The translations under genes were made by a program, and so were the position numbers. The notes under the pieces are model-generated. The model saw only the letters and a list, made by a program, of their open reading frames with translations, was not told where the DNA came from and did no database searches. From positions 1 to 49,887 of the forward strand of contig NKIB01013925.1 of assembly GCA_002256025.1 (NCBI GenBank): DNA of 49,887 nucleotides. Reading direction: 5' to 3'. Numbering within the stretch: position 1 is the stretch's first letter; each line of letters begins with the position of its first letter. Source of the stretch: Asterionella formosa (lineage: Eukaryota). This document shows, piece by piece, positions 3,015-49,887 of the stretch.

Positions 3015-3037
3015 TACCAGGTACCTGGTACCAGGTA
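3015..3037. repeat. TACC(A/T)GGTA chain (example of a window-wide intergenic motif)
   Basis: TACCAGGTACCTGGTACCAGGTA. Similar chains at about 10155-10182, 10492-10565, 15845-15870, 17565-17600, 18406-18432, 22006-22033, 29105-29120, 29236-29250, 29351-29365, 36709-36725, 38236-38250, 45815-45860 and 48248-48525. Confidence 0.9.
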
Positions 3038-3445
3038 ATCTGAAAATGATCACAACCATAGCCGTAGCCTACTGGTAGACAACTACCACGTACCAGCGGT
3101 TACCAGGTACGCAGTAACCACGTACCGGTAACTCATGCGCTATTTCGGCGGTATAGCTATTGTGAGTCGTGTATGAGATTGGCAGGTGCTACATACGCAC
3201 GTGGACACTGATATACAAATGCATATAAGGTATTGCCCAGCAATTATTGCTCAATGCATGTGCCACCGAAGTCGAACAAATTGATGGTCCAGTACATGCA
3301 ATACTCCGAGTTACACACAAAGATAACTATCAAGTGAGAATTAGTAAAAGCCGTGCATGCAGTGATCAACCATTGCTTGCCTGAAGAATCACAACAAAAC
3401 TTTCAAACGTGTCCATTGCACTACTTTCAAATCATATTGCTGGAC

Positions 3446-4958
3446 ATGATTCGCGACAATAACCAAGAACCATTGCCCCCTGCTGAAAATGTGTCTACCC
3501 AGGAGGACGAGGAATCTGATGATGACGATGAAGAACCTCTCACCAGTCGACAGAAGTTCCGGAAACGAGCCTGGGCATTCTATAATCAAAATGAGTTTCT
3601 CATCCTAGTCGTCATTGCTATCTGTTTGGCTAGAGCTTACCCTCCGTTGGGGGCTGTGTATCTTGAACCGAAAATCACGGCTGGATGGCTTGCTGTCATC
3701 ATTATATTTTGTAAGTTTTGCTTGGCCCGCATGTTCACATCGATTTCCATCAATGAAAGACTCACACACAACTGTTGTCCAACCATAGTGATGGCGGGGT
3801 TAGCTCTAAGAACAGAAGAATTTGTCAAGGCCTTTCAACAAATCTATTTCAACGCTTTCGTTCAGCTTTTCAACTTTGGTTTTATTTCCGTGTGTGTATT
3901 TGGATTCTCGCGCCTAATGGTTACGCTTGGAGCTATTTCCCAGGAATTAGGAAACGGAATGGCTATTTGTGGTTGTCTCCCGATCACCGTGAACATGTGC
4001 GTTGTGCTGACAAAGGCTGCTGGTGGAGGTAAGGTTCGAAAGTCCTGCTTGCCTGCTTCTTTACGTTTTCAAGTGGGTTGGAGGTTTCTCACGCGAATTC
4101 TTCGATTCCTCCATATTAGACGAAGCTGCTGCAATCTTCAACACAGCCTTTGCAAACATGATTGGAATTTTCATCAGTCCGCTCTTAATTGTTTTGTATA
4201 TTGGCGTTGAAGGAGGCATCGATACTAAGAAGACTTTCTTAGAACTTTCCCTCAAAGTCCTCCTTCCTCTTTTTGTAGGTCAGGTGTTGCAAAAGACTTC
4301 CAAACTTGTTGTCCGGTTTGTCAAGAAGTTCAAGAAATATTTCCTGAGGGGGCAGGAGTACTGCCTCGTTTTCATTCTTTATACCACGTTTTGCAAAACC
4401 TTTGCTGGGAACAAGCGCACAAAGATTACGCAAATCCTCTGGATGATTTTGTTTCAATTCATCCTACTCATGTTCTTTACTACTTTGGCATGGTATTCAT
4501 TGAAGTTCTTGTTTCCCGACAAGCCAAAACTCCGAGTCATGGGCCTTTTTGGATGTACACACAAGACGATTGCTGTAGGTGTGCCTCTCATTACATCAAT
4601 CTATGCAACCAGTCCCAATCTTGGAGTTTACACTCTGCCCCTGTTGATTTGGTATCCAATGCAGCTGATTATTGGAACATGTCTACTTTCCAAGCTCAAG
4701 CTCTTTTTGGAGTCGGAGCGAAAACGACTCGAAGGTGAAGAAGAGACCAAGTCAGATGATATAGAATCAGCATCTGATGGAGAACATGCCATTATTGACG
4801 ATGGGCTTGTCGACAAGGATAACAAGCATAACAAGCTTCAAGAGCCATCATTCACGGTAGCAGGCGATGCAGATGACAATGATAAGGAGGGTGTTGATAG
4901 CATTGAAGCAGGAGCAAAAACAGTTTTGGCAGATGTAGAGACAGGTGCGAAAGACTAG
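3446..4958 (+). CDS. SLC10A7/RCH1-like sodium/bile-acid symporter family transporter, copy 1 (exons 3446-3710, 3789-4028, 4120-4958)
   Basis: GT-AG introns at 3711-3788 and 4029-4119 restore one frame. Motifs 'LRTEEF', 'LTKAAGGDEAAAIFN', 'IL/IYTTFC', 'GCTHKT', 'LPLLIWYPMQL' match SLC10A7. Confidence 0.9.
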
Positions 4959-5399
4959 AGTACTTGCATAAACTGTGAATGATCAAGAGTGGATTTCAGA
5001 AGTTCGAATTTCTTCAGGGACTGAACATGATGTGCAACAATTAAATAGATTGATTACCTTTGCAATTAGTATAGTTTCGAGCAGGTTTCCAACCCTTTGA
5101 ATCCGCTAACAGTAATCCAATTCCTGTTGCTTTTGGTTCTGATTGACTAAAATTTTGAAAGTAACAAGAGTTTTTTTATGTGTGAGTTATATTCCCTTTT
5201 TGCTCGTCTTCAAACTTCAAAACATATGGAGAGTCATGTTGAGAAATTGTGTTATATATTTGATTGCAGACTATTGTCTGAACCATGTATGTAACTTCAT
5301 TTTTAGGTTCCTTAAGAGATATACTAAAACTAGCAATCTGGCCATTGTACTTTTATATTTAATTGTTATGCATGATATCTTACATTCATATTTTCCTAC

Positions 5400-6310
5400 C
5401 AAATGGGCAGTTCAAGATATATTGTGCATTGATATTATCAGTAGAATATGTGTATGGAGAGGATACTTTTCACACATTTGTTGGCAGCAAATAAGCAACT
5501 TTTTTCCAATGGAATCCTGTCATTAGTGGTAAGCCAATAATTGGTCCTGATCCTGGACCAAATATTTTTGATATCATTCAAATGGATGATTATGCTCATA
5601 ATTAAATTTTTCCGTTCACCACCATTATGTATGGATTTCCAAGCTGTTCTGGCAACCAACATGTAGGCAGTGCAGGAGAATGGTTGCTTACCGAAGAGTT
5701 GGTATTGATGTGGCTGAGGCCGGTCAAGAAGTCACCTTCTGGAAAAACTGCGTGCAATGCATTGAACACAGCGTAAATCCTGAAATTCAAATGTCGCCAC
5801 TTGCATGCAAAAATATGGCGTACAGAGCGTCATTAAGGATCATCAATACTGCAGAAACAAACATGAAAGTTGAAATTGTTCGTATTATGATATCAGGCAG
5901 GATCCACTTATAGGCATACCACACACCAATGATACCAGAACAAAAAGAGGCATGTGAGGGCCCACGGAATCTAGGGGCGCTACTAGCACCGGAGGGAAAG
6001 AATAACCAGAAGGAATTTAAAAAAAATTGATAAACACGGGGAAAACAATGACAGGAAAATGAAATTGCCAAGGCCTTACAATTGCAATTGAGCATGTGGA
6101 AATTCAGAACGGAGGCAGTGACAGGGAAACCATTTCAATTCCCGATTGCTCCAAATTTGCGATACATTGAATCGAAGTGAGTGACATCTGTGTGGCAATT
6201 TGTAGATCACATCTAGGGCACAGTGCTGCACATCGAGAACACATGGGAATTATTATTCCATAACGAGAAGGAGATCAATGTTTTATGGATATCTTTCAAT
6301 TTCCGCAATA
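5400..6310 (+). mobile_element. Degenerate non-LTR retrotransposon (LINE) fragment, region C-terminal to RT
   Basis: Broken frames give 'AYRRVGIDVAEAG', 'GPRNLG', 'YIESK*VTSVWQFV...ENTW...DQCFMDIF', resembling algal LINE ORF2 thumb and downstream blocks. Many stops and frameshifts; boundaries approximate. Confidence 0.45.
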
Positions 6311-6721
6311 TATTGTTTCACAATTAATTTTAAAGTTTATTACTACACACTAGAAATTTCACTGGTGCCTTTGAAGACCCAGATGACAATTCATGCCATT
6401 TTCTTCCAAACTTGAGGCCGTCGCCCATGACCGTGTTCCCAGATAGTAGGAGCTAGTAGGCAAAGCCGAGATCCATTGCGCAGACCATCCTGTTGGGTCT
6501 GAAGCCACGCATTATATGCTATGTCAACTGTTTCCACCCTCAACCTCGTTTGTTGTAATGTAGTATGTCGCTTAGTTCGCACTTCCACTGGCAGCAAAAA
6601 TAGATCTTTGTCTGTTTCTTCAATTTCTTGTGTATCAGTGGCATATCTTCACCTAATCTGTGTATCCACTGATTCTGTCAATTTAAGAAGTTGTTCCTCC
6701 CCTGTCTTCCCATATACTAAA

Positions 6722-7033
6722 CCTAATGCCAGCAATAGATACCAATTTGGAAACCCGGTAAGTAATAAAAATATAATCGATACCAATTTGGATCTAAATC
6801 GGTAGCAACGTTTCCAACCATATCCCTAATAGCTACCAATAATAGGACCCAATTGGAAACCAAATCGAAAGGGAAAAAATTGCTACCAATTTGGATCCCA
6901 ATTGGTAGCACTGATAATAATAGATACCAATTTAGAAACTCGATTGGTAGTTTAAAAAATTGACACCAATTTGGATCCAAATTGGTAGCAACGTTTCCAA
7001 CCCTAACCCTAATACCAACAATAGATACCAATG
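6722..7033. repeat. Array of palindromic TACCAATTTGGATCCAAATTGGTA-like motifs with a (CCCTAA)2 tract
   Basis: Variants at about 6740, 6781, 6849, 6881, 6925 and 6965; CCCTAACCCTAA at 7001-7012; the block begins and ends with CCTAAT-CCA-CAATAGATACCAAT. A perfect 24-bp copy lies at 7842-7865. Confidence 0.85.
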
Positions 7034-8517
7034 CTACTCGCTCTGGTTGAAAAGAATTGCGTCGAATCGCCGGCACCACTGGTGTCTTTACTGTTTGCAT
7101 ATGAAGGATTACGTAGCTAATATACCATCTTTCTACGTGAGGATCGGCTTACTCGAAAAAATGCGTTCTTTATTAGTTACATAGACGTGAAAATACCCAC
7201 TGTTTCTGTAATTAAATTAATGGCATTTAAATAAAATATTCGAACCCAACTTAAGATACTTATATTAATTACGTATATGTGCATATCGCCAAATGCCATT
7301 TTATCTTGGTTGGCCACTCAAATATTTGCGGGAAACTAAATGGAACAAGCCACTATCATCATTATATCATGAATAGAATAACTGTCATTTCGTATGTTTT
7401 CTACAGTTGTTGCACTTACATTGACCACACCGCTGGATATTTAATGGTGATTTCCTGAAAACGAACATATCTTCGTTTTCTGCCTTCCCACCATTGCAAC
7501 TTTTGGGGTTGCGCATTCCATAATTGAACTCAAATTCTTGCCGTTGCTCTACTGTTATAACCTACCTCATAAGTATGTTGAGAATAGATGGTTCGAAGAA
7601 AAATGGGTCCTCATGCACTGCATTTTGCTCGAGATAGCCATAAGTGAAAATCGAAAAAGCCCAAAAACCTTTTTTTGATACGTAGTTGCCAATTTTAAAT
7701 TTACTAGATATCTATTATAAATGGATCTGTAGCTTATGCGATTGCGCACATTAGGGCAATTGAGCCGGAGAAAATCGTAGGAATCAAAATTGCGCCGGAG
7801 AAATATTAACATTCGCCACAATTGTTTTCAACCAGAAGGAGTACCAATTTGGATCCAAATTGGTATTTCTGTTAAGCTAAATAACTATCTATATTCAGAT
7901 TAACCATTTCTCAAGAATTTTTTGCCAAATTGACATCAAAAATACCGATTTGGCAAAAAATCCAATTTGGATTTCGGACATTTCGAAAAAGAAAAAACGT
8001 CAAACACTCGAAATCCCAATTCGTAGTTCAAAATCGGTACTAAATTCCTCCAAATTTTTTCTTTTCTGCAGCCATGGCAACATGTGCGCGCGTGCATAAG
8101 AGCATCGCCACCACATTGACCAAATACCAAGCCAATTGAAGTTGCGGGTCATTACACCACGTCATGATGTGTTGTGTTGGTCGAAAAAGCAAAATTATTT
8201 TAGCCACCGCATCGACCAAGACCAAATATGCTTTGGTCTTGGTCGAGGATGACCCCTTATCGACCAAATATCAAGAATTTGGTCTATTAGACTCCGACTG
8301 TAGCCAAATAAAAGGATCACCTCTATTGGTTTAGATTGTGCTGGCTCGCGCCAGCAACCTAACGTTTATAGTTTAATGAGCAGTGCAAACATAATTAAAG
8401 TACATTTCACTATAGCCACTATAGCCTCTTCATGTATAACTCTATAGGCCAATGTGATCTTGTTGTGTATACATCATATAGAGTCAACATCATAAAACAA
8501 CAATCATCATTGTCAGG

Positions 8518-9195
8518 ATGGGTTTCAGTGTCACGTGGGAAAAGGAAGAGGACGTAGCACTCTCTCAGGCCTGGGTAGCTGCAAGTGAAGACTCAATCAC
8601 TGGGACTGGTCAGAAAGCAAAAAAATTTTGGAGCTGGGTATTTGAGATTTATGTTGAGCTTATCCCAGATGGGAAGGATCGCACCTCAACGGCGTGCACT
8701 GCTCGATGCATGGGGAACAATCAATCAAGATGTGACAAAGTTTTGCGGCCTCTATTCACAGGTTACGTCCATTGCTAAGTCAGGATGGACAGACGACAAC
8801 TACCTTTAGGAAGCAGGGAGCTATTTAAATAAGAGGGAAAAGGAAGGAAAATGGGTAGAGAATTCGTGTTCGAAGGGTGTTGGCGAATTTTGAAGGACGC
8901 TCCAAGGGGAAGGGTGGGTGTGGATATGTCCGAGATCAGCAGCAAATCACAAAGAAGGGTCCTGAGTTACTAGATGTGCGTCCCATGGGGACGAAAGCAG
9001 CAAATGATAGTAAGCTGCTCGCAAATTCTCAGCTTGTCATTGAGCAAAAACACGTGCAGATGTTGGAGAGAAAGGTGAAGACGCAACGTAATGAATTTTT
9101 GTTCAAGATTTTCTCTCTTATTATTTATTCTGAGGAAGCTAAAAGGTGGTTTGCTATGAAGGCTCAAGAAGCTATGGAGGAGATGGAGGAACTCA
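8518..9195 (+). pseudogene. Harbinger accessory Myb/SANT-like (NAM-associated) protein, disrupted
   Basis: 'WEKEEDVALSQAWVAASEDSITGTGQKAKKFW', 'WGTINQDVTKFCG', 'FVFEGCWRILKDAP', 'RPMGTKAA'. Interrupted by a 4-nt frameshift near 8707, a TAG at 8807-8809 and further shifts. Confidence 0.85.
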
Positions 9196-9490
9196 GTTTT
9201 GGACCTTGTGGCTCTGAAATTGTTTTGACAAATGTATGCCAATTTGAGCAGATTCCGTCAACCAAATAATACCTCAGATTGTGTTTTTGGTTGTTGATGG
9301 CAAATTGTACTTTTGGAATCTTTCCAGTTGACAAATCATGCAAAAACGGTGAACGATCCAAAATATTAAGATCATTGTTTGTTGCCCCAGGCATTCCAAA
9401 CCATGCATGCCAGAACCAAAGTCTGCAATCAACCACAGCTTCCAAAGCAATTGTTGCCACTCCTTTGTTGAGTGTTGTTGACTATGACAT
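9195..9490 (-). pseudogene. Plant_tran (PF04827)-type Harbinger DDE transposase fragment
   Basis: 'TIALEAVVDCRLWFWHAWFGMPGATNNDLNILDRSP...YYLVDGI..W.TFVKTI..P' is the family core. The C-terminus is missing, and a possible ATG at 9490 is joined almost directly to the core. Confidence 0.9.
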
Positions 9491-10986
9491 CCTTGTTAAA
9501 TTGAAAATTTCGATTATTGATAAAAAATTTCTCGACCAAGTTACGTGTATTGAGATTTTCAATTGCAATTTGCTTTGGTATTTGGTCGATGTGGTGGCAA
9601 TGCTCTAAAAGGAGCTAACGCTAGTCTAGCAGGAATTTTCCCAAAACAGGATGAAACAGGAAAAACTATTCGTAAATTCAACTGCCCATTGGCATTTGCA
9701 CCACAATTGCACCACTATTACTTAGAGAAGCCAAAATTGCACCATCAGACTACCTTTATGTAAAATCCGTGCTACTGCCTGCACTACCGTAGTGATATTT
9801 GCTCATATGATCGATATTTGCTGCTTATGATCACGGTCAGATTCATATAAGATCTGTATTTTGTAGTAGCATACCACGTACATACATATAATGATCCATT
9901 CATCGAATACTTACTACCGGTAAACTAGTAATAAAATACTGCAAGTATTCTTTATCATACAGATTACTACCAGGAGCCGGTAATGAATTTTTAACTAAAT
10001 AAGGCCGTGTCCTAATATTACGGTGCCCGAAAGAATACCAAGATTGCTTGCCTCAAGCAAACGGAGGATAGGAGCGAACCACAGCAATAATATAATTTCA
10101 AAATGACTCCTTGCTGACGTCATATTGTCGCTGCACCACATTGCACCACAATGATACCTGGTACCGTTACTGGTACCAGGTACATATGTTGGCTCAAAGT
10201 TTAGTATCTGGCACTGGAGTACAGGATCATATGCAATTAGCGCTCTAACGCATTCTTTCGATGAATTTTGTGTCTTGTCCGGGTTCTGTCACCTCTCAGT
10301 TCGCACGGGGGTGTATATCGGACCGGTAGCTGCTATGCCTTTCCTGTATGTCCGTACTGGCACCTTCTGTTGTGTACTGTTTTGAAACTCTTATGCATAC
10401 CTAATGAAACTATTTTTATTCCCAACGGACAGAACGGAAGCATCGCCGGCGAACACAATGTGCATTCCACGGCTTGGCTGTGCGTTCTTAATACCGGTAC
10501 CTGGTACAGACGATGATGATTACCAGTACGGTACCGGGTACTCGAGTACCTGGTACCAGTACCAGGGCCGGGAATTACATAAAGATGTACAGTGCCGGTA
10601 CATGATTTGTTGACCAGTGCATGCATAACATACGAAGCTGCTGGCTGCTGACGCCGATGCATTTACAAAATTTGGCAAGGAACAAAGACAGGATTAATTA
10701 TAGTAAACTAACAGATACCTGGTACTCTACGAGCGTACTGGTACCAGTGCTATGTATACCATAACAGGCAGTCGTAAATGTAAAACAGGAGGAGGTCATG
10801 ACTAATAATACGCACATGCATGATTAGCGAAGGGCGGAACCATCATATTGACACATAATTAGATTTAAAAGCATCTGGTGTTCCTCGTTGTCCATTTTCC
10901 TCCTTGTTTCATTAACAAAAACGCAATATCAAACCTAAATCAGAAATTTGAATATAATTGTCCACCCAGGAAGCGGATCTGGTAGC

Positions 10987-12476
10987 ATGAGTGAAAACTT
11001 CGAAAAGAGCGACGAAACGATTCAGGAAGAGAAAGAAGAGGATCGAGGAACTGGCGAAGAAGTTCAAATTCCCTCTTCGGGACGCTTGAGTAACGTAAAC
11101 TACGATTCTGATGACGACGATGATGAAGAAGAGCTAACCAGTCGACAAAAATTCCGGAAACGATTTTGGGATTTCTATGAAACTAACGAATTCCTCATTT
11201 TAGTAGTCATTGCTATCTGTTTGGCCCGAGCCTACCCTCCGTTGGGAGCTGAGTACCTTAAACCGAAAATCACGGCTGGATGGATTGCTGTCATCTTAAT
11301 TTTTTGTAAGTTTCGCTTGAAGCGCTTGTTCACATTGCTCAATTTATGCGAATGGCTCACTTAAACTGTTGTCCATAAATAGTGATGGCGGGGTTAGCTC
11401 TAAGGACAGAAGAATTTGTCAAGGCCTTTCAACAAATCTATTTCAACGCATTTGTTCAGCTTTATAACTTCGGTTTTATTTCCGCATGCGTGTTTGGCTT
11501 CTCTCGCCTAATAATTACACTTGGCGCGATTTCTAAGGAACTAGGAGACGGGTTGGCTATTTGTGGTTGTCTCCCGATCACCGTGAACATGTGCGTTGTG
11601 CTGACAAAGGCTTCTGGTGGAGGTAAGGTTCAAATGTTTGTGTAGCTACTTTAAGTTTGCAGGTGAATGGTATGCTGCTTACGCGTTTGCATATATTTCT
11701 CCATATTAGACGAAGCTGCTGCAATCTTCAACACAGCCTTTGCAAACATGATTGGAATTTTCATCAGTCCTCTCTTAATTGTCCTGTATATTGGAGTTCA
11801 AGGAGGTGTCGATACGGCGAAAACTTTTCAAGATCTTTCTATTAAAGTCCTTCTTCCTCTTTTCGTCGGTCAGGTGTTGCAAAAGACTTCAAAGCTTGTT
11901 ATCCGGTTTGTTAAGAAGTTCAAGAAATATTTCCTCAGGGGGCAGGAGTATTGTCTCGTTTTCATTCTTTATACCACATTTTGCAAGACATTTGCTGGGA
12001 ACAAGCGTACCAAATTTACAGAGATCCTCTGGATGATTTTGTTTGTATTTATTCTCCTTATGTTCTTCACTATTTTGGCATGGAATATATTGAAGATTAT
12101 GATACCTGACAAGCCGAAACTCCGAGTCATGGGCCTTTTTGGATGTACACACAAGACAATTGCGGTTGGTGTGCCTCTTATCACATCGATCTATTCTAAC
12201 AGTCCCAATCTTGGAATTTACACTTTGCCATTGTTGATTTGGTATCCCATGCAGCTGATTATTGGAACGTTCCTCGTTCCTAAGTTTAGGATCTTTTTGA
12301 AAAACGAGGCGGAGCGGCTAGGCACCAAGGATGACATTGATGATGCCTCACCTTCAGATCAACAGTTTACAGCAGGTCGTGAAGTTTCTGATGAAGAGGC
12401 AGCTGTTGATATTCCTGAAGTGTCAGACGATCATAGTGCTGCTGCTGAAGGACAAGATGAGGGTGCCACAAAATGA
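10987..12476 (+). CDS. SLC10A7/RCH1-like transporter, copy 2 (exons 10987-11305, 11383-11622, 11710-12476)
   Basis: Same intron positions as copy 1 and the same 240-nt exon 2; core protein nearly identical to copy 1. Confidence 0.9.
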
Positions 12477-13369: not shown

Positions 13370-15060
13370 AGCCGAGTGAAGCATCACTCAATAGGCACGT
13401 GTGTACTAGCATCTATGGACAGGCCAAGAAAACCTGCTTGGGTCATGTCAAATTATTGATGATTTGCCATCTGTGGGTTTGTAGGAGACTTGACATAATT
13501 AGAGTAAAGAATGGTGGTACTGTCAAATTTAATAAATGCATGCAAGAACTGCATGTGGGCGTTGGGACTAATTCCAGTGCTTTCTTCAATGTTGTCAAAA
13601 GTCCATCCTCTCCCAAGGTAGTACCTAAATTTCCCTAAAATCATTATTTCAAGGGGGGGATGAAATCTATTTCTGTTGCATCTGACTGATTTCAGCAAGG
13701 AAACCAATTAGCTTCTCTGGCCTCCTCAAAAAAAAAGGAATTGGGTGTGGAAGTCGAAATTTGCCGAGAACTTTTGGAAAAATACCTGATTCATCAGCTG
13801 GTCTTGAAATGTATAATAGATACCACTTTGACACTCAGTGGATTTATTAATTGAACACGCCCCTCAACATCGATATTTTGGCAGATCCTGTTTTTTCCTA
13901 GACCATGTAACAACCTTGACAGTCACTGATTTCTTTAGGCAGCTCAACGTAGAGTTCTTTGGTAATGTTGGTCTGACAAATTGCATTCGAAACATCAATT
14001 TGTTGTGTCTCAAGGCCCAGAAACTCAGACATGACCAAAAGCGCACGGACAGTAGACCACTGGACCACAGGGGCATAGGTTTCAAAAAAGTCAATACCTT
14101 CCTGCTGTAGATCCCCGCGTACACAAAACTGTGCTTTGCATTTGTGAACACAACCATCTGGAAGAAGCAAGGAGCTTGCGCTTGAAGGCCCATGTGCCTG
14201 GTAGGACTCAGGGGCACAAGCGTCTAAGTCGTCTTTTGGGGTAACGCAGGGATTTCAATGACCATAGCTTCGCAAGACAATTCGGAATCAGGCTCAGATA
14301 TACCCTTCTTGTGAAAGCAAGGATTATCAGGGTCCATTTTACTTGCCATGATTGGGAGGCAGGTTCATACGGGGAAAGTTCTTAGATTCCTTTTGTAGGA
14401 GTCGGCAACGAGAAATGTCATCTGGTTCTAGCCACTCATCAGCAGGTGTTAAGTTTGTGTGTTTGTCAAATTCGGTCTCAAACCGGGACTCGTAAAAGAT
14501 AGTATCCCAATTTTCCGGAGCGTCATTGGATATATTAAGCGAGGAAACGGTCGAGACAAGATAATCAAAGACAACGTGAAATTGCGGAGAGTTATGTCCT
14601 GTAGACAGATTAAGTACCAAGGGTTGTGTTGAGTTCATGAATCATCATGAGAACGAGCGTTTTGATCATCAATGCGACAAGGAAAAGAATGCAAAGAGGT
14701 TGTTGTGCTTGCCCTGCACAACCTATCCTTCGTAGCTGGGACTGGTGGGTCGCCTGCTCCTGTATCTCCAAAGAGCATTAATGTCTTTTATTTACTGGAC
14801 AACAATGTGACAAAGAAATTTTAGGGAATGCAAGGAGGCACTGACATGGAGCAGGCAATAATGTGAGTGATGTATGAAGTGTCCTCACTACGCATTGATT
14901 CTATTTGTTCAGGAGGAAAACTTTGATTCAAGTTGGACATGAAAACAGTGTCTAGAATCTTGGTATCTTTGAAGCATCCTCCAAATTGATGACCCTTGAA
15001 GGGTCCAGATGCTGAAGTCGTTAAAAGTTGTGAACGGATAATACTAATTGTTGGACTCAA
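13370..15060 (-). mobile_element. Degenerate Ty1/copia (CoDi-like) retrotransposon pol remnants
   Basis: RT block 'PDG...K.KAQFCVRGDLQQEGIDFFETYAPVVQWSTVRALL...QIDVSNA' (13898-14170) and post-integrase block 'PLVLNLSTGHNSPQFHVVFD' (14339-14638). Frameshifted and deleted; no LTRs recognised. Confidence 0.85.
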
Positions 15061-16017: not shown

Positions 16018-17457
16018 ATGGAAGTAAGAGACACGTTGAATGAAGAGGGAAAAGAAATGCAAGTGAATGACCCAATTCCTTCCGAGGAGCTCACGCAAGC
16101 AGTGCCACTGTCCCACCAGGGGAAGCTTTGTAAACGAGCGACTGCATTCTATTTTGCAAATGAGTTTATCGTTTTAGTCATCATCTCGATTATTCTCGCC
16201 AAAGCCTACCCTCCTTTGGGTGCTGATTATCTTAAACCTCAAATCACTGCATCTTGGATTGCTGTTATCCTCATCTTTTGTAAGTTTTGTCGAGGGAAAT
16301 GTACACGATGATACAAATCTTCGATTCATAGTCGAATGCAATTTCTAGATCGCTTTAATTAGCATATCTTGTCGTGAAGTAAGGTCATTAACAACTCACA
16401 TACAAGTACTCCTTCCACTACAGTTTTGGCTGGGTTAGCTCTCAGGACCGAAGAATTTGTCCATGCCTTTAAAGAAATGTATTTCAATACATTTGTTCAG
16501 ATTTTCAACTTTGGCGTTGTTTCCTCAATTGTTTTCGGGTTTTCTCGTTTAATGATTCAGATTGGAGCTATTTCCCAGGTTCTGGGGGATGGAATGGCAA
16601 TTTGTGGTAGTCTTTCAATCACAGTGAACATGTGTGTGGTGATGACCGTGTCAGCTGGTGGAGGTAAGGATTCAATGAAAATAATTTTTCGGTTTATACA
16701 TTTCATTACTTTGTTCTCACTTTATTTATTGTATTTACCCACAGACGAAGCTGCTGCTATCTTCAACACCGCCTTTGGCAATATGATTGGAATTTTTCTA
16801 AGCCCGTTCTTAATCCTTGGCTACATTGGGGTTTCCGGAAATGTTCCTATCGGCACAACGTTTTACAAACTTGCGGTTCGAGTGATACTTCCTCTTTTCA
16901 TCGGTCAGGTTGTAAGAAAGACTTCAAAAGGTCTTGTTGCCTTTGTCAAAACGCATAAGCCATATTTTGCTAAGGCACAGGAGTACGCCCTTGTCTTCAT
17001 AATTTACACCATTTTCTGTCAGACCTTTTCCAAAGATCACAACTCAAATATTGGCGATATCTTTTTGCTTATTTTGTTCCAATTCATTCTCCTTTGTACT
17101 GTCATGGCCTTGGCTTGGCACCTTCTAAAGGTACTTTTCCCCAATCAACCTAAGCTTCGTGTCATGGGACTCTTCGGATGTACACAGAAAACGGTTGCAG
17201 TGGGTATCCCTCTCATCAGTGCAATTTACCAAGGTAATCCGAACTCTGGACTCTACACTTTACCCCTCTTGATTTGGCATCCCATGCAAATTATTCTTGG
17301 GTCGGCGCTAACTCCCAGGCTCAAGGCCTTTGTGGAGGCCGAGAATGAGCGGTTAGGCATTGTTGACAAAAATCCAGAGACTTCTGAACCGACTGGCTCG
17401 GAAAGTGATGTTGCAGATGCGGAAGCACAAGTAGTTCATACCACACAGAAACCTTAG
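16018..17457 (+). CDS. SLC10A7/RCH1-like transporter, copy 3 (exons 16018-16279, 16424-16663, 16745-17457)
   Basis: GT-AG introns at 16280-16423 and 16664-16744 in homologous positions; family motifs intact. Confidence 0.9.
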
Positions 17458-34387: not shown

Positions 34388-34420
34388 AAGTAAATGCTCC
34401 CCATAAAATAAATACAAACA

Positions 34421-36477: not shown

Positions 36478-36571
36478 CCTGCAAGTTGCGGTAATTGTGC
36501 TGAAACTAAAAGTTTAGCTATCTTTATCCTTAATTAAATTGTCTTTTAAGCCAAATGACCGTAACTTGGTG
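36478..36571. mobile_element. ~95-bp MITE copy D
   Basis: TA-CCTGCAAGTTGCGGTAATTGTGCTGAAACTAAA...CCAAATGACCGTAACTTG; in tandem with copy E. Confidence 0.85.
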
Positions 36572-36574
36572 ATA

Positions 36575-36670
36575 CCTGCAAGTTGCGGTAATTTTGCTGA
36601 AACTAAAGATTTAGCTATCTTTATCCGAGATAGAAATGTTAGTTTAAGCAAAATGACCGCAACTTGCTGG
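36575..36670. mobile_element. 96-bp MITE copy E (best preserved)
   Basis: 32-bp TIRs with 3 mismatches (CCTGCAAGTTGCGGTAATTTTGCTGAAACTAA / CCAGCAAGTTGCGGTCATTTTGCTTAAACTAA) and TA on both flanks. Confidence 0.9.
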
Positions 36671-37450
36671 TACCATGGGTTCCTGGTACAGTACCATGAT
36701 TTACCAGCTACCTGGTACCAGGTACCGCAGACCACACGGCAGAAGATATGATTGGAGCAACAACTTCGCCCAGTACCTGGTACAACCTACAGGTACCTTG
36801 GACGAACACAATAGAACATGGATTCACCCTATATGTAGTGTAAGCAAGAGCACTATAGAACATGGATAGAAACTGTTGGGCTTCAACAACAAACACTGGC
36901 GTTCCACGTCAGTATTTTCAACGTGAACCTTGCTTCTTACAAACGAATGTCAGTAAAAGTGAATAGAACAAACAAGGCATCTCACCGGTTTATTCAACTT
37001 GAACGTTGGGTCGTACATCCAAAATATCAATATAAATGAGTGCTTGTTCAAGAATGCTGTCCGGGTTCGGATGTAGACTACCTCATTCCCATTTCCTCCG
37101 ATGAATGTACAATATGCTAAAAGTTGGCAGGTATTTTGTTCGTTTAAGTGTCAGCAAGAAGGGAAGGGGCAACTTATTCACATTTGAAGCATTCGTCTGC
37201 ACTTCATGACGTCTCAACATTTCAAGCCTTCTTGCCCAAACTAGAACAGTACGGTGCGTAGCCCCACTGGATTAGGCTGTCTAGCTAGCTAGTGGGTCTT
37301 TCCTGTTGCTTTTGCCGATTCTCAACTGCTGGTCAACTGCACTACTCAATTCTTGCAATAGTCGTGAAAATATACTATATAGTCGCAATTGAGCTACTTT
37401 ATTGGCAGCTGCTGATGTATTACCATCGAAACCATTACATGAAAATGTAA

Positions 37451-38014
37451 CTAGCAATGTGGTAGAGCTGAGCTCGAACGCCTTCCCACGTTTCTCGACG
37501 CTGATTCAGACTGCAAAAAGCTTATATGTCCTGGTATGCCTGGAACTTCTTGCCTTTCAGGTTGATTTTCTTTCCTCTTCTTGCAGCACGATTCACTGTT
37601 GTCGCATACTGCTGCGACATGGGTGTCACGCTTCTTCCCGGTCAATCTAGATTCGTCACTTCCATCGTGGTCGACCACTTGTTGGAGTATGGAATACCTC
37701 ACGGGATCCAGTTTTCCGCAGAATGCACCTGTATGAAGAGACTTGAATAGCTTTTCAACAGAATTTACCGCGAAAATGGGCTCTTTCTTTACATCACAAA
37801 TGTTTCTGAAGTCGCTGTATCTTCTAGTTGCAGTAACAATCGTTCTGCTGTCATTCCATGTGGCATTGGATGTGAATGGATGTGAAGCAGCTGAGTTCCG
37901 TCGCATCACCTTGTTGTTGATCGCAGTACACTTCCCGTCGTCATCCCAGGTGGCATTCGAAGTGCTTGGTTGTCTAGCAGAGTTTCGTCGCAACATGATC
38001 TTGTTTTTATCCAT
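37451..38014 (-). CDS. Hypothetical protein with an internal duplicated 'RRNSA...TSNATW.D' motif
   Basis: 187-aa ORF from an ATG; two in-frame copies of a ~25-aa unit. Confidence 0.45.
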   Translation of the reverse strand: MDKNKIMLRRNSARQPSTSNATWDDDGKCTAINNKVMRRNSAASHPFTSNATWNDSRTIVTATRRYSDFRNICDVKKEPIFAVNSVEKLFKSLHTGAFCGKLDPVRYSILQQVVDHDGSDESRLTGKKRDTHVAAVCDNSESCCKKRKENQPERQEVPGIPGHISFLQSESASRNVGRRSSSALPHC

Positions 38015-39506
38015 TTGGTGTTTACAATGAAAGGAGGTTCGTTGGTTGAAATTCTTGAGTTATGATGCAGTGAGATAAAATTGAAATTATGTTGTGTTCC
38101 TGCGGTTTCTATGTAGCAAAATATTTGTTTTGGGTTTACAGTATTAAAAGGTACACAGATCGGGTTCACAGGACAAACTCCGAAAGGCGACGTTTTGTAG
38201 TATACTTGCTGCGACTGTTCACATGCCAACGTCAACCTGGTACCAGGTATGGAGTAAAAGTACAAGGATATTCCCTCTCTATGACGAGACAATGTGTACA
38301 ATCCAGTTATATTTTACATGTAGCGGGATAGCTGCAAACATTCAAACTGTCTTCGATGTCGTTGTACATAGCGACAAGTCCTGCTTGAAGTACATGAAGC
38401 AGAACCAATTTTAATCGAAGTTCAAGATTGATCAGCCGGTCGTTCTTTTGTGTTCCCATTCAATTGTCTTAAAGCTACGTTTTCAGGTACCAGGTGGAGT
38501 ACCAGTTAAAAATGGCTTTGAGCCACTTAGGGTAAGACAAAAGCGCAAATGTAAATCGCTAAACGGAGCTTTCACCAATACACACCCATTCCATATGCTT
38601 AAATACAGTCATTTATCAAAGTAGGGGTATAGGTCAACACTATATATCGTCAGGATATAGGATCTGGCGAGAAACTGCAGAAAGGAACTTCGGTTTTTAA
38701 ACTATGCTGAAAATAGTGGATTTTACCGGGCCAACTCGTCCTTCAGTTTCTCGCCGAAAGTTGAGAGTAAACTAAAATAGTTTCGACATCTTCCATAATT
38801 ATTTTAGAAACCCACATAATTTTTGGGGCCAACTGACAATATTTTCTGGCGACACAAAGAATTTTTTCAGTAATAATCTCTATAATACACTACTTTTCTC
38901 GACAATTCGCAACATTTCCGTTCATAAATATTCTTCACTCTGACTACCATTAATTCTGTTAGTTTGCTCCCTTTGTATCTTTACTTTGATCACATTAATA
39001 CCTCAAGGATAAACAAATATATATCTTAGTCAAACAAATAATTATGTGTAACCAATCAACGTTTCAATTTAATTCTACAATCGCAAATCAATCAAATTAA
39101 TCGCTTTGCTATATAGTTTATATTGATTCTTTCTATAGAACGCGATTCTCAAACCAATACGACAAGCAATGGATGTTCATTCTTGCAGCTGGATGCCTAG
39201 AAATAGGTGAGAAAACTTGAGCAAGAGTTTTCTTGGAGAAGGTACAACATTTCAAGATGCAACAAACTCCCCTACATCAATTTTGTAGTGAGTTTCATGT
39301 AAGCACTAAATGTCATGTTCCATAGTTCTATGGAATCTTGATAAGGTCATTTGACAGTTTACTATAGACATACTTTCAGCCATTCAACAATAGACTGCTT
39401 GCTCTTTACGCGAATAAAAACTTTGCATTGTGGAAATGATCACAAACCCCTGACTAACAGTTTATACATTTTCGGACACTTTTATGAAAAAGTTGTATTC
39501 TTTCAT

Positions 39507-41058
39507 TTCGGTGCTTGTGGACTGATCATCATTGATGTAGCAACAAAGATTCCAAACAATCTTTCTTAGCCAATTTAAGACCGATTTCTCTCTAGAATAG
39601 TATTAGGTGTACACAAGATCCATGCTGTCAGGTCGAATGTTGATATTCTAAGAACAAACATACATTAATCAAATTGGTCATCATGATGTGTAAACTTTCG
39701 GTGCTTGTGGAGGACTGATCATCACCAGTGCTATAGCAACAAGAATTCCAAACCATTTTTCTCCAGCAATTTAAGGGCCGATTTCTATCCTGCCTAGTAG
39801 TATTGGATTTCCAGGAGATCGATCCCGCCATGGTGAATGTCGATATTCTCAGAACAAACATATAATGATCAAAGGAGGCATCAAAATGGTGTGTAAAACT
39901 TTCGGTGCTTGTGGACTGATCATCAGCCAGCAGGGCTATAGCAACACAAATTCCAGTCCATCTTTCTTCACCAATTAAGGCTAATTTATATCAATCATAG
40001 TATTCGATGTACAAGACGTCAATGCCGTCATAATTAATGTGGATTTACTAAGAACGAACATATATTGATCAAATTGGTCATCAGGACGTGTAAAATTTGC
40101 TTCAATAATTGCAGTGGACTGCTGCATGACCAGTGCTGTGGCAACGGAAATTCCAAACAATCTTGCTCCACCATTTTAAGGCTGCTTTCTATCTAGCATA
40201 GTATTCGATGTACACGAGATCAATGCCGTCATGGCGAATGTCAATATTCTCAGAATGAACATATATTGATCAAATTGGTCATCAGGATTGTGTGTAAATT
40301 TTCGGTGCTTGCTGTGGACTGAACAGCAGTGCTGTGGTAACAAAAATGCCAAGCCATATTTCTCCACCAATTTAAGACCGATTTCTACTCAGCATAGTAT
40401 TCGATGTACACGAGATCAGTGCCTCTATTTCGAATATCTATATTCTCAGAACGAACATAAATTGATCAAATTGGTCATCAGAATGGTGTGTAACTTTTCG
40501 ATGCTTGCTGTGGACTGCTGCATGACCAGTATTCCAAACCATCTTTCTCCACCAATTTAAGGCTGATTTCTATCCAGCAAAGTATGCGATGTCCACGAGA
40601 TCAATTTCGTCATGGCCAATGTCGATTATCTCAGAAAGAGTATATATTGATCAATGGAGGAGGGATGAAAATGTGTAAAAGTTTTGGAGCTTGTGGACTG
40701 ATCATCAGTGCTGTGTTAACAAAAATTCCAAACCACCTTTCTCCACCAATTTAAGGCCAATTCATATCCAGCATAGTATTCGATGTACACGAGATAAATG
40801 CCATCATGGCGAAAGTTGATATTCTGAGAACGAACAAAAAAGGAGGCTGAGGATGTGTAATTTTTGTAAATTTTCGGTGATGGTGGACTGATCATCAGTG
40901 CTGTAGAAAAAAAATTCCAAATCATCTTTCTCCACCAATTTAAGGCCGACTTCTATCCAGAATAGTATTCGATGTACACAAGAAAAATGCCGTCAAGTTG
41001 AATGTAGATATACTCATAACGAACATTTATTGATCAAAGGAGGCATCAGGATGTGTAG
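39507..41058. repeat. Tandem satellite/minisatellite, 8 diverged units of ~186-204 bp
   Basis: Units start at about 39507, 39697, 39901, 40101, 40301, 40497, 40683 and 40872. Shared blocks: TTCGGTGCTTGTGGACTGATCATC, ATTCCAAACCATCTTTCTCCACCAATTTAAGG, CATAGTATTCGATGTACACGAGATC, TTGATCAAATTGGTCATCAGGATGTGTAAA. Confidence 0.95.
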
Positions 41059-41386
41059 ATGGCGATTGTGGCACTTCCAATTTTGATTTACTACCATAGG
41101 ATGTGCTAGTATGCCGTGATGATAGTTAGTACATCAGCAGGGGTGCACCAAAACTCAAAGCTATTATTTTCTACCTAATTGCATCCATCTACTAAACTGC
41201 TAAGAATTTTATTGGTCAAATCAGACATCAGCAAATATTTTTGGAGTGAATTGACTGGTGGTGTGCAGAAAAAGTGCTTAATATTGTGAAAAATATGAGT
41301 TATGGAGTGGTTGAATTCAATGAAGTTGATAATCCTCATCTCTTTGGCCCTTGCCTCAACGAAGAATTTGTTATACTCACAATGGT

Positions 41387-42231: not shown

Positions 42232-43177
42232 TATGTATTGGTCATACATATTTTCACCATACTGTGCCTGTTCACTATTGAAAGACTTTGCTTACCTGGG
42301 TCATGTTGCAATATTTCTCTGCTACTCCCCTTCTTCATTCAAGCTGTTAATCACTGTATGGTGCTGGTTGCCACAATATTTTCCAGGTTTGCTGTGGAAT
42401 CAATCTGAAATTTGAACAATTATAGAGAAGTATCTCATCAATTCATTTGCCTGATTTCTGTGATGCAATAATCTCCCCTTTCTGCTATTCTGATGCCATT
42501 GGACATATCTCCCCTATCTGCGGTGTTCCAGTGACAAGTGGCTGGTGAAAAAAAGAAAGATTAAGGCGAAGGATGAGTTGCTTAGTGCTGCCCCTTGTTA
42601 GACTCTTATGGGTGTAATGAGTGCCCCTTTTTATCCTCATGTGGGCGTCTAGAGACTGTCCTTTTATACTTGGTACAGAGTAGTGTTTGTGTGTAAGGGG
42701 TCCACAGTCAGTCGGAACCTCTGTTCGGAAAGCTGTGGGGAGTTCGGGAGAGAGATACAACATCAAATGTGGAGACACACACAAACTAGCTACTGAGGCA
42801 CACCGCTTCAACATGGTGACTTTTTGTTTGCAAAAGCAGCTGCTTGGACCAGATGAAATCTGTGTCAAAGTACAATGGTTCCAAGGAGGATAGGGAGCGG
42901 AAAGGTCTAATAAACTAGTAAAGGAAAGTGGAAACACAATATATACAGCTGCAGCGCAAATCACGATGAATCCATTCAGCACCGGACAATGTTAATTCTA
43001 CTAATGTGTGCTATATAATAATACCAGCCAGGTAGCTGTTGGCTGCCATGTATAAATCCATGGGTTGTTCAACATACATACCGGTATGTATTGGTCATAC
43101 ATATTTTCACCATACTGTGCCTGTTCACTATTGAATGACTTTGCTTACCTGAGGCATATCGTAATATTTGTCTGCTA
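42232..43177. repeat. ~92-bp direct repeats (about 42232-42323 and 43085-43177) bracketing ~760 bp
   Basis: TATGTATTGGTCATACATATTTTCACCATACTGTGCCTGTTCACTATTGAA.GACTTTGCTTACCTG... is present twice, identical over the first ~50 bp. Confidence 0.9.
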
Positions 43178-43896
43178 TATATATACCACCAGTGAAAACC
43201 CTTAAGCTACTGGTATGACGACTTTTGAACTGAAAGCGACCGCCTAACGGAGTAAATGCACGGTTTGAACTTATTTTGCAAGATAAGGTTCATTATTGTC
43301 ACGAAGGAGTTGTTCAGATTTATATATCGAGTAAATACGTACGTATTGTTGCATTATGTAGCTTGTTAAATACTTTATTACGACCAAATGTTGCTGTAGA
43401 CGCGAAATTGCGAAAGATGGCTGAATATTTTCATGTTTCCTCTATCTTAGTATTGCGCTGGCATGGCCTTTTCTATACGTGGTGTACCAGGTTCCGGTAT
43501 TCTATTATACTCGAGTACTTTGCAGATAGAATTTGAGATTTGGTACGTATGACAGCAATTTTTCTTGTCAGACGTGTACTAAATGTACAATCGGCGGAGC
43601 TTCATTTCAAAAATGGCACTCAATTCCGACCATCACCTTCGTAGTATCAAAGAGGTTTTGAGGACACATTATTACAATTATATTTGGCTGATCGCGGTTT
43701 GCATTTTCAACCTTGTTGTTAGGAGCACGAATTGCGTTTTTACATCAAACAATTCGAATGACGATTACAATTGCATACTTGTCAGGTCTTCAATACTACT
43801 AACGAGAGTGGACCGAAGGAACGCGATATCTACGTTGTAAGCGGCAATAAAGGAAAGGACACAAAAATAAGTCAACGGAACGAAGAAATTCATGAA

Positions 43897-45302
43897 ATGC
43901 CCCTTCCTTCTGATGAAATGTCCCTTCCTTCTGAAGTTCCAACCGCCGACGGCCCACCACAGCCCTGCAGGTCAAAGCTCCGTAAACGAGCGGTTGCATT
44001 CTATTTTACAAATGAGTTCATCATCTTGGCAATAGTGGCAATTCTTCTCGCCAAAGCTTACCCTCCCTTGGGTGCTGAGTACCTTCAGCCCCAAATTACA
44101 GCTTCATGGATTGCTGTAATCTTTCTCTTTTGTAAGTTTTGGTTGCGTCGAATGCATACTTCCCTTCATGACCTATTGCCTTTTTGGGAAAACTCTACCA
44201 TTGGGATATTTTCTCGAGATTTATTGCATCGACAGCTCACATGCAAGTCCTCATTTCCGCAGTTTTGGCAGGGTTGGCTCTCAGGACCGAAGAGTTTGCC
44301 CATGCCTTTACACAATTGTATTTCAATGCTTTTGTACAAATCTTTTCTTTCGGCGTCGTTTCTTCGATTGTTTTTGGGTTTTCTCGTTTAATGATTAAGA
44401 TTGGAGCGATTTCGAAGATTCTAGGTGATGGAATGGCAGTTTGTGGTAGCCTTTCAATCACAGTGAATATGTGCGTGGTGATGACTGTGGCAGCTGGTGG
44501 AGGTAAGTCTTCAATTCATTATTTCTGTGCTCTCGTTCCTCCTGAATAGTGGAAAGTATGGTCTCTCATTTAGTATGCCCCAATAGATGAAGCTACTGCT
44601 ATCTTCAACGCAGCCTTTGGCAACATGATTGGGATTTTCATAAGTCCGCTTTTAATTCTTGGCTACATTGGTGTTTCCGGAGATGTCCCAATCGGTACTA
44701 CATTTTACAAACTTGGCGTTCGAGTTCTCCTTCCTCTTTTCATTGGTCAGGTAGTGAGAAAGACTTCAGACGATCTTGTAGCCTTCGTTAAAAAGTATAA
44801 GCGATACTTTGCCAAGGCTCAGGAGTACACCCTCATTTTCATCATTTACACCGTTTTTTGTGAGACCTTTTCCAAAGAGCGGGACTCCAACATTGGTGAT
44901 ATCTTTCTGCTAATATTGTTTCAATTCATTCTCCTTTCTGCTGTCATGGCATTGGCTTGGATACTAATGAAGTTTCTGTTTCCTACCAAACCTGAGCTCC
45001 GTGTCATGGGACTATTTGGGTGTTCACAGAAAACACTTGCAGTGGGTCTCCCACTTATCAGTGCAATCTATGAAGGAAATCCAAATGCTGGACTGTACAC
45101 TTTGCCCCTCTTGATTTGGCATCCCATGCAAATTATTCTGGGATCGGCACTTACTCCCAGGCTCAAGGCCTTTGTAGAGGCTGAGAATGAACGGTTAAGG
45201 TTAGTCAACAATGTTCCAGATATTCCCCCAGAACAAGAAGGTTCTACTATAGGAGTTGTGGATGAGGAAGTGCAAGAAGGTGATGCCACCAATAAAGAAT
45301 AG
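43897..45302 (+). CDS. SLC10A7/RCH1-like transporter, copy 4 (exons 43897-44131, 44263-44502, 44587-45302; start codon uncertain)
   Basis: Homologous GT-AG introns at 44132-44262 and 44503-44586; closest to copy 3. Confidence 0.88.
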
Positions 45303-46146
45303 TTCTCTGGCAGAGAAGATCATGTAAATGCAGTACACAAGGTTGCTTCATTGACTGCCCTGGTAATTGTAGAATCTATGTACTGTTGAAAAGGTTGGTA
45401 CTCTGTCCCACGGACTGGGTCTCTCTTCATGTAGGCTCTTATGTGCTTGTAGTACTACCTAGTACCACTTCCTTTCTCTCTCTTCTCTGCTTCTAGCCTT
45501 CCTGCTAGCCTGTCAATTAACACACTGTTTCCTCAATTGATAATCTAAAATTAAAATTAAATTATAAGCTAAACTAAATATTTCCTTTCCATGCATCTTT
45601 GCTTCCAACAAAGTTGTTCTAAGACTCTCTTCGAATTTCCACTTAACATTTCCATAGAAATTTTCATTCTTTGATCTTGGTAGATAGCTTGACATGGCAA
45701 TGCAATATTTGACTCATTGAATATCAATCGAGTCCACAATCCTTGTGACTCGGGCTAATATTTTTGACCATGTACTGGTATGTATTATTCTTACATACAC
45801 TTTTGAATACTCGGTACCTGGTAGTCTACCTGGTACCTGGTACCAGGGGTGGTACCTGGTTCCACTACCTGATGCTGACATGCCGGTATATAAATTAACG
45901 TATGATAAACATGATAACAAATCAATTCCACACATGCCTATATTACGTATAAGCCATCCGGAAGGAAAAAAGAAATTAACGACCCAGTTTTCATATCTCA
46001 AATCGAGTACCCCGGGTATGTCTGTCTTCTACCTTTTGCCTTTCAAAATGTTGATCATTTATATAAACGCAGGATCTGACAACAACTGAAAGCCAAGTAT
46101 GCTCTTAGTTAGTTCCTTCACACAATTGCATGTTACGTTACTAATT

Positions 46147-48061: not shown

Positions 48062-48525
48062 GTTGGATGATGGACAGAGAGGGGAGGTATTGTAAGGAGG
48101 TAATCAAGCGAACTAGAGATGCAACTCAGCGAGGTGTGCACTTATTTGTAAGTAGTTTCCTGGTCCAGGCACTACGAGTAGTTACGCCGAGTACTAGGTA
48201 CCGGTAGTCTAGCAGGTTCCGTGTTGCTTCCACGCTTCTACTGTAATACCTGGTACTGAATCCCGTACTAGGTGCACACTATGGTACCAGGTGTGGTACC
48301 AGGTACGTGAATTCCTGTTGTACAGGTCGTTGTAAAATCAAATTTTGATGTCGAGCAGGTTCAGCCAAGAAACAAGAATGCTTGCGGTGCCGTATGTATG
48401 GTGTGTTGCTGCGTTTGATCTGCCTTGTACCTGGTACCGGTATGTGTTCCCACACGACGAAACTGCAGCACCATGCAACGTGACCCCCAGATAAAATACT
48501 GGTACCAGTAGTATACCGGTAGGTA

Positions 48526-48622
48526 CCTGCAAGTTGCGGTCATTTTGCTGGAACTAACATTTCAATCTGGGATAAAGAAAGCTAAATCTTTGGTTTCAGC
48601 AAAATTACCGCAACTTGCTAGG
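48526..48622. mobile_element. ~95-bp MITE copy F
   Basis: TA-CCTGCAAGTTGCGGTCATTTTGCTGGAACTAA...TTTCAGCAAAATTACCGCAACTTGCT. Confidence 0.88.
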
Positions 48623-48659
48623 ATAGAGAAAATCACTGTACCAGTACCGGTACCTGAGA

Positions 48660-48757
48660 CCGGCAAGTTGCGGTCATTTTGCTCTTAAACAAACAATTTA
48701 ATATAGGATAAAGATAGCAAAATCTGTAGCTTCCACACAATTACCGAAAGGTGCAGG
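48660..48757. mobile_element. ~95-bp MITE copy G
   Basis: CCGGCAAGTTGCGGTCATTTTGCT...GATAAAGATAGC...ACAATTACCG...TGCAGG-TA. Confidence 0.8.
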
Positions 48758-49887
48758 TACAGGAATTCTACTCTACAACTACCGGTACATACCCCCGGAA
48801 CAAGGCCCGGTAGTGCACTTTTATGCGCACTTTTTCAGTTTCGACTAACGACTCCCAATGATTCATCCCATGCCACAGGAAGGAATACGCTGGCTTTCCA
48901 ATCCAAACTCTCTTCAATAACTTTCTATGCCATTAAATTATCATTCATTCAATCCAAGTTGTGTTCTGATCATCAAAATTGTGTTCACCTACTTCTACTG
49001 GTAATAGTATTCAGGAACTGGAAGACGGTTTGGTTATAGAGTTCACAAATCGCTCGGCACCTTCTAGTTGTAGTCAGCAATTTCTAATCATGGTTTGCAA
49101 CTTCTATTCATATGTAGTCACCAACTGGATCATTACTTGTAAACAAAAGAGTCTCATTGTTCAGAAATAGCAATGGACTAAGAATATTTGACCTACAGAT
49201 TATATTGTAGCATGTTGCAGACCGTGAAAGTGTTAAATCTTGTCATAACTTCGTCACTTTGAATTCTGCATCGCTCATCTAAAGCAATGTGCCTTCAGCG
49301 ACTCTTTTAAAATTTTCGTTGTCATTTTTAGTGATAGTACCACAATGATTCTTCTACAATTGTATTGGTTGTATCATGTATAAAATATTTACCAAATAGC
49401 AATAGCATCGTTTTTGTTTTCCATAAAGATATTTATTATTTTCGTTATGGTCAAGATGAAGACGGCATGAGCATTCAGGATTCTATAGTCGCTCACAACT
49501 ACTACATAGTGCTCCCTCTGTTCCAGTATAGTTGCAAACAAACTTTAGGTCAGTGCCTCACAGCCAGCATGATGAAGCGCAACCTCCAATAATTATCCGG
49601 CTGACAGCCCTTCCTTTTTAAAAATTATTCCGAATCGAATGGCTTATATAATATATGTTCTAAGTAGTCTAAAATTAGGTGAATCTGACCTCGTTTTTTC
49701 GCGCGTTTTTTGTAGAATCGCGCCCCATTTAGAACTATGTAGCCATAGTATTTTGTGATATGTATGATATTTGCAAATACAAATATGCCGGTACCTGGTA
49801 CGCTGTTTCATCAGGCATGATAATGAATGTGACTATGTATATAGATATAACTTAACATATGCTCATAGCAGTATTAGCATGCCCCCC

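Follow-up and report, generated by a model that had tools for sequence, protein, structure and literature searches.

Several DNA transposons that duplicate a TA on insertion are known to leave a short trace when they move on. In the Triticeae, Stowaway elements have been inserted and lost repeatedly at one and the same TA, also beside an earlier footprint, and the footprints described there are short fragments of the element ends (PMC1925063). In pineapple, Mutator-derived transposable elements of the miniature inverted-repeat kind (MITEs) target (TA)n microsatellites and form adjacent clusters (PMC8449440). In promoters of Phytophthora infestans two motifs, M93 (TACATGTA) and M94 (TACCGGTA), are presented as candidate factor-binding sites, in a paper whose main text does not contain the string "transpos" (PMC3597505). 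Here we analyse a contig of the diatom Asterionella formosa (NKIB01013925.1, assembly GCA_002256025.1, 68.4 Mb in 15,436 contigs), taken in its entire length of 49,887 bases and called the window below. It carries palindromic units of the forms TA-CCWGG-TA (W is A or T) and TA-CCGG-TA, and an 88-bp MITE. An earlier reading made from the sequence alone, the sequence-only reading, took chains of such units for excision footprints of that MITE. A scar origin is the most likely one, since units are gained at TA and match the ends of resident elements, but the MITE as their maker does not stand. We estimate at about 0.68 the probability that TA-duplicating DNA transposons of the pogo type, and not the MITE, left the units behind as excision scars.

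Palindromic units, their gains and candidate sources

The window holds 69 units between 3015 and 49800 (TACCAGGTA 13, TACCTGGTA 19, TACCGGTA 18, TACTGGTA 13, TACCAGTA 6). First-order Markov sequences made from its intergenic DNA gave 0.06-0.54 per word, with a maximum of 2 in 50 runs and about 1-2 expected in total, and a third-order model gave 0.5-2.2 per word. In the whole genome TACCWGGTA occurs 26,886 times against 902 for its reversed control, TACCGGTA 28,528 times against 1,718, and dimers of the CCWGG unit 5,576 times against 2. The statement of the sequence-only reading that the units are often chained through a shared TA is right in that the chaining is real, yet chained units are the minority: 28 of the 69 are found in 9 pairs, 2 triples and 1 quadruple, and the other 41 are singles.

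That the units are insertions at TA can be seen between paralogous copies, where they have been gained at a plain TA. We searched 2,149 alignments of paralogous or allelic loci and obtained 352 distinct indels of 3-16 bp. The loci, numbered with an L below, were chosen around repeats and are not a random sample of the genome, and the class spectra are from the window together with these repeat-centred loci. Among the non-tandem 6-bp indels (n=31) TA was duplicated in 18, and the change was from TA to TA-CCGG-TA in 11. In the best polarised CCGG gains a single filled copy stood against 6, 14 and 15 empty ones, and in the others against 1 or 2; one unit gain was located in the interior of the MITE. 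Rarer gains were CCAGG and CCAG, with 2 each, and CCATGG, CCCGG, CCA and CCG, with 1 each. A relaxed search returned 26 rows, from which 5 distinct non-tandem CCWGG events were picked by hand, and 3 more CCAGG gains were tandem and fit slippage. What is expected of a footprint, end-derived bases and a second TA at a formerly plain TA, was found in non-tandem events of the CCGG (11) and CCWGG (2) types and in one event each of the CCATGG, CCCGG, CCA and CCG types.

The spectrum of units matches the ends of resident TA-duplicating elements, namely the young CCG-ended families P1 and P2 and a CCA-ended family. For the Tc1/mariner type that had been suggested, a search with DDE_3 gave no match in the assembly; the candidates are pogo-type. 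DDE_1 matches 93 places in the assembly, and the 30 that were examined define P1, P2 and a small third family with CAG ends; TA is duplicated in all three. P1 is 2.46 kb long with ends CCGTAA and exists in 9 copies of 99.4-100% identity. It has the TA duplication, the short inverted repeats and the DDE_1 transposase with DD35D that characterise the pogo superfamily. P2 has the ends CCGTAT and a TA duplication. The CCA family (ends CCAC..GTGG) was found by a de novo scan for TA-flanked inverted repeats. It gave 265 end matches against 0 in the control, its copies are 0.2-3.7 kb long with terminal inverted repeats, TA is present at 60 of 66 ends, and one empty paralogous site has a single TA. 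The open reading frames (ORFs) of its long copies look DDE_1-like in the ESM Atlas only (0.95 to DDE_1 clusters, 27 of 30 hits), with a D-37-D arrangement judged by eye.

The families also differ in target context. In the CCA family 41 of 66 ends have GG just beyond the TA, but only 1 of 27 ends in P1 and P2 (Fisher p about 1e-7). Among the distinct units of the window and the loci GG is found there at 566 of 914 CCWGG ends (62%) and 13 of 18 CCATGG ends (72%), compared to 108 of 772 CCGG ends (14%) and 8% of all TA. In the window alone the figures are 33 of 64 for CCWGG and 6 of 36 for CCGG. Of the new gains, hand-picked and indicative only, 5 of 6 CCWGG/CCATGG events and 0 of 11 CCGG events were at GG|TA. 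A preference of the CCA family for TAs already flanked by GG or CC agrees with the idea, put forward earlier, that each footprint supplies a preferred target for the next insertion. Neighbouring CCWGG units have the same orientation in 39 of 89 pairs and different orientations in 50, nearly what independently oriented units would show, whereas slippage alone should produce uniform runs. In the same set CCWGG units number 457 and CCATGG units 9.

Such scars could form as follows. If, as in the general chemistry of Tc1/mariner elements, the cut is made 3 bases inside each end, overhangs would stay on the donor ends. Overhangs of CCG and CGG would anneal over two bases (CG), so that an ordinary TA becomes TA-CCGG-TA, in most cases a single unit, while CCA and TGG overhangs would join over one mismatched base to TA-CC(A/T)GG-TA in random orientation, or by a blunt join to TA-CCATGG-TA. 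Each CCWGG scar would place GG or CC next to a TA, the context preferred by the CCA family, which could then return and let mixed-orientation chains grow, with some units added by slippage. TACTGGTA and TACCAGTA may be CpG-decayed TACCGGTA or uneven joins, and the CAAG-ended MITE family would afterwards use the central CWG of the scars.

Two other classes were noted. TA has changed to TA-GC-TA in 7 non-tandem gains (e.g. L195/L193 and L142/L166), with no matching resident element end among those found, and TACCAGGGTA/TACCCTGGTA is a further abundant class with 57 copies (the median class has 2 or fewer) that often flanks CCA-family ends.

The 88-bp MITE and its landing site

Judged by its flanks, the MITE reads CWG-[CAAG..CTTG]-CWG, and the motif is its landing site, with insertion at the central CWG, which it duplicates. 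The window holds seven copies (no strand assigned):

28998-29076: copy A, internally deleted, flanks CTG / CCT
29255-29346: copy B, flanks CAG / CAA
33021-33110: copy C, flanks CTG / CTA
36482-36568: copy D, flanks CTG / GTG, in tandem with E
36579-36666: copy E, ends CAAG..CTTG, perfect CTG / CTG duplication within TAC-CTG-GTA
48530-48617: copy F, flanks CTG / CTA
48664-48753: copy G, one end decayed, flanks CGG / CAG

Beside copy G, 48680-48830 resembles the flank of locus L262, which suggests another small repeat.

Genome-wide there are 1,355 first-look candidates, and 190 copies match an inner pattern exactly. From 70 of these 190 loci, with duplicates merged and one contig-edge copy dropped, we obtained 69 distinct copies, whose flanks are unbiased since the search pattern consists of inner bases only. 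With the flanking triplets read in one orientation, the middle base is identical in 59 of the 69 copies (A/A 29, T/T 30); 3 copies have complementary bases there, and 7 have some other difference. TA is present on both sides in 18, and the terminal C..G pair is kept in 66, where the ends begin CAAG. A scan over boundaries and lengths gave a 3-bp duplication outside CAAG..CTTG, with perfect triplets in 33 of 69 where TA scores 18. For CWG targets a 1-bp (W) duplication outside GCAAG..CTTGC is equivalent (59 of 69), but the GAG/GAG of L051 favours 3 bp, and CGG/CGG in L006 is another duplicated triplet that is not CWG. Removal of the MITE and one triplet restores the palindromic target GTAC-CWG-GTAC, with an exact TACCWGGTA in 15 of 69. 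Longer non-coding relatives (0.4-1.4 kb) have the same ends CAAG..CTTG and same-base flanks in 12 of 13.

The sequence-only reading had placed the element boundaries at TA-CCWG..CWGG-TA and taken the MITE for a TA-duplicating Tc1/mariner element whose fused ends give TACCWGGTA. TAC-CWG..CWG-GTA is indeed the consensus of the flanks. The density of units is also roughly tenfold higher next to MITE copies, at 12.6 per kb within 50 bp compared to 1.3 per kb at 300-1500 bp; the association of MITE flanks and motif that it noted is real. The flanks are nevertheless direct repeats of CWG, and an inverted repeat reaching to the TA would have complementary middle bases, which the flank test finds in the 3 copies only. 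A TA is not required on both sides, as it would be in a Stowaway-like element, although the terminal C/G pair is nearly always kept, duplicated triplets other than CWG exist, and the reconstituted target is the motif itself. The MITE adjoins chains because it inserts into them, and we give hardly any credence to it as the source of the units. Scars that the MITE would itself be predicted to leave, CAGAG, CACAG and CAGCAG between TAC and GTA, are rare (0, 1 and 3), the one common word being TACCAGGGTA (57). At one junction of the copies in L043, L064, L066, L069, L058, L075 and L095 two extra bases recur (CWG-WG or CW-CWG), perhaps from repair at integration or from abortive excision.

Searches for empty MITE sites in paralogues gave weak or artefactual matches only, the best being L052/L239 at 70% identity, and a search for an allelic contig of 17400-29600 returned only matches to the MITE. 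When contigs of four public runs were compared over 24700-39300, repeat copies dominated the matches, and neither a gained unit nor a vacant MITE site could be read from them; 12 stretches taken as likely allelic pairs added little, with one pair identical and one unrelated outside the MITE. No coding partner with DDE and Myb/SANT ORFs between MITE ends was found among the 38 examined of 150 listed DDE_Tnp_4 matches or in the DNA near MITE-type ends. Transposase fragments beside such ends in L191, L206 and L201 belong to nested or fused other elements, and the interiors of L202 and L205 contain, as judged by eye, no recognisable transposase ORF. A young high-copy Harbinger family (L101-L130, e.g. 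L115:610-1910), with near-identical copies and TNA flanks, breaks many contigs; with its ends GGGTCG and flanks TNA it was rejected as partner. The zebrafish element Harbinger3_DR duplicates a CWG target, as the MITE does. The same target duplication is found in NuwaI, a group of the PIF/Harbinger-related PHIS superfamily known only from animals (PMC4482050); NuwaI ends usually begin with GGG, and PIF/Harbinger ends with A or G, whereas the MITE begins with CAAG in 66 of 69 copies.

Placement of the units and other features of the window

We drew 17 gene spans by hand in the window, among them four for SBF-like (bile acid:sodium symporter-like) transporters and others for an ABC protein, an EngA-type GTPase and a 14-3-3 protein. 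The introns are short and the genes compact, which suits an alga. Outside these spans lie 68 of the 69 units, and no chain is found within a coding span, in accordance with what had been noticed from the sequence; the one genic unit is a single TACCGGTA in an ORF. The clustering upstream of genes was also correctly seen: the 1-kb stretches upstream of predicted starts hold 56 of the 69, at 4.5 per kb, and 12 are in the remaining intergenic DNA (0.78 per kb). This bias probably reflects open chromatin and tolerance, and not function. The main clusters and single sites are as follows, with a strand given where one was assigned:

3015-3130: 6 units in a cluster that lies upstream of the first SBF-like transporter gene and includes a triple CCWGG chain
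9915-10743: 11 units clustered in the DNA upstream of the second SBF-like gene
17565-18432: cluster of 10 units upstream of a UAA transporter gene, with the only quadruple chain (18406-18432)
21815-22089: 4 units in a divergent intergenic region
25091-25773: 4 units upstream of a Pyr_redox_2 gene
29091-29359: 6 units between divergent genes, on either side of MITE copy B
34606-34613: the lone genic TACCGGTA, in a 255-aa ORF (34421-35188, minus strand) without Pfam match, where a gain of 6 bp would be in frame
43079-43086: TACCGGTA that is a plain TA in the paralogous copy L144, direction not polarised
43186-43481, plus strand: a decayed end piece of the CCA-ended, putatively pogo-type family (identity about 75%), with a TA directly before it at 43184-43185
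45773-45842: 4 units upstream of a NUDIX/DUF4743 gene
48199-49003: 11 units in the DNA upstream of the 14-3-3 gene, where MITE copies F and G lie among them

The four SBF-like paralogues (3447-4958, 10988-12476, 16018-17457 and 43894-45302) have a common intron layout, and three of them are in tandem. An internally deleted PIF/Harbinger element at 8100-9605, of a family distinct from the MITE, has a TAA duplication, inverted repeats of about 37 bp and a Plant_tran fragment. Several copies of a TA-bounded 24-bp palindrome starting TACCAATT are found at 6739-7031 and 7842-7865, split by an element of about 810 bp with CTC-type ends (about 7036-7845). A decayed copia-type retroelement with reverse-transcriptase-like fragments, judged by eye, is on the minus strand at 13864-14641, and 39496-41085 consists of about 8 tandem units of about 195 bp with 60-85% mutual likeness.

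Alternative explanations and comparison with known systems

Several observations speak against an origin of the units as pogo-type scars. Among the paralogous loci compared there was no site with an element in one copy, a scar in another and homologous DNA to its left and right. What comes closest is a single TA in the long CAAG-ended repeat. It is empty in 5 copies; L191 has CGG there, L178 an end of the CCA type, and L168 and L177, close relatives of L178, have CCTGG. This hot-spot loses homology downstream, and the far end of the insertion in L178 is not within the next 3.3 kb. Non-tandem CCWGG events are few (2 in the strict set, about 5 in the relaxed one). The ORFs of the CCA family have no Pfam, PDB or pairwise BLAST match, and all that were seen are broken. 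There are about 55,000 units and about 130 extant CCA-family copies, a several hundredfold excess. Scars of 5 bases exceed the published ranges, which are 0-4 bp in the case of Passer (PMC9976928) and 2-4 bp in that of Tc1/mariner elements (PMC7913693). The GG context of the CCWGG units is partly circular because chains themselves create it, the near-identical pairs L163/L175 and L080/L031 differ by one unit in uniform runs and fit slippage, and the unit at 43208 seems to have been born by substitutions within the decayed end of an element, which would mean that some units are not insertions. Finally, the over-representation of TACCGGTA in Phytophthora promoters has been read as that of a candidate factor-binding site (PMC3597505), and may support either a regulatory role or a shared scar origin.

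Besides the MITE as maker, three other explanations have to be weighed. The words could be selected host promoter elements, putative transcription-factor sites, which the CCA family and the MITE merely target. The 5.8-fold higher density within 1 kb upstream of starts would fit this, as would the Phytophthora promoters, although the available part of that source describes no functional test of TACCGGTA (PMC3597505). Units have, however, arisen de novo within transposons, the MITE among them, where a single copy has the unit and many others are empty, and a fixed insertion of 6-7 bp with a duplicated TA is not a product of selection. The other intergenic DNA is largely young repeat, so its lower count has separate causes, and we regard selected promoter elements as an unlikely origin. 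Somewhat less unlikely, but still improbable, is a transposon-independent repair or template switch that puts CC..GG palindromes at TA, with slippage of 7-bp units making the chains. It could explain why some near-identical pairs have uniform runs that differ in length by exactly one unit, the 7 TA-GC-TA gains that match no element end among those found, and the excess of units over extant elements. A templated process would hardly insert constant letters regardless of the flank, and slippage would hardly make neighbours differ in orientation in 50 of 89 pairs; moreover, for every scar class there is a resident family that fits it in both its ends and its target context. A single family, e.g. 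the CCA family cut at two or three bases, might also make all classes, with P1 and P2 as bystanders, and a two-base cut on any CC-ended element could indeed give CCGG. Since both the CCGG units and the new CCGG gains are without the GG context of CCA-family sites, we consider this very improbable.

If the units are scars of pogo-type elements, two of the most over-represented non-coding words of the genome would preserve about 55,000 transposition events as fossils that can be counted, in which every scar class could be traced to a family by its ends and target context. There would be a route from the repair of cut-and-paste transposition to a promoter-enriched pseudo-microsatellite, one transposon family would exploit the scar of another as its target, and searches for motifs in the promoters of diatoms and oomycetes may mistake scars for factor-binding sites. 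A source of misreading is also corrected, as an element that duplicates CWG within TAC-CWG-GTA mimics a TA element with CC ends. More speculative, and in our view rather doubtful as a whole, is the wider picture in which CCA scars are autocatalytic and build chains, the CAAG family has specialised on scar centres as a safe site, tens of thousands of scars act as promoter sequence, and TACCGGTA and TACATGTA of Phytophthora have the same origin, as a stramenopile-wide trait.

A literature search that was thin on subscription journals and covered no supplements gave no report of such chains in diatoms or of an element targeting the scar of another. Excision footprints and re-insertion beside a footprint were already known (PMC1925063); added here are the flank test of the MITE, the assignment of scar classes to different families according to their target context, and the parallel in Phytophthora. 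The proposed scars resemble those of pogo and Tc1/mariner elements such as Passer, ZB and Sleeping Beauty, in which the TA duplication is retained together with a few bases of the element end (PMC9976928, PMC7913693), and P1, like pogo elements, has a DD35D transposase. Unlike in Passer, ZB and Sleeping Beauty, 4-5 bases from both ends would dominate here, with about 55,000 scars in 68 Mb, as inferred from sequence comparison. The Stowaway case in the Triticeae concerns one intron, while in A. formosa the pattern is genome-wide, with a measurable preference for a scar-flanked TA. As in pineapple, a MITE prefers a simple repeat as its landing site and forms adjacent clusters, but the target is here a palindrome that is itself probably a transposon scar. 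In P. infestans, another stramenopile, M94 is the same word as here and is enriched in promoters, and M93 and M94 both have the form TA-xx-yy-TA.

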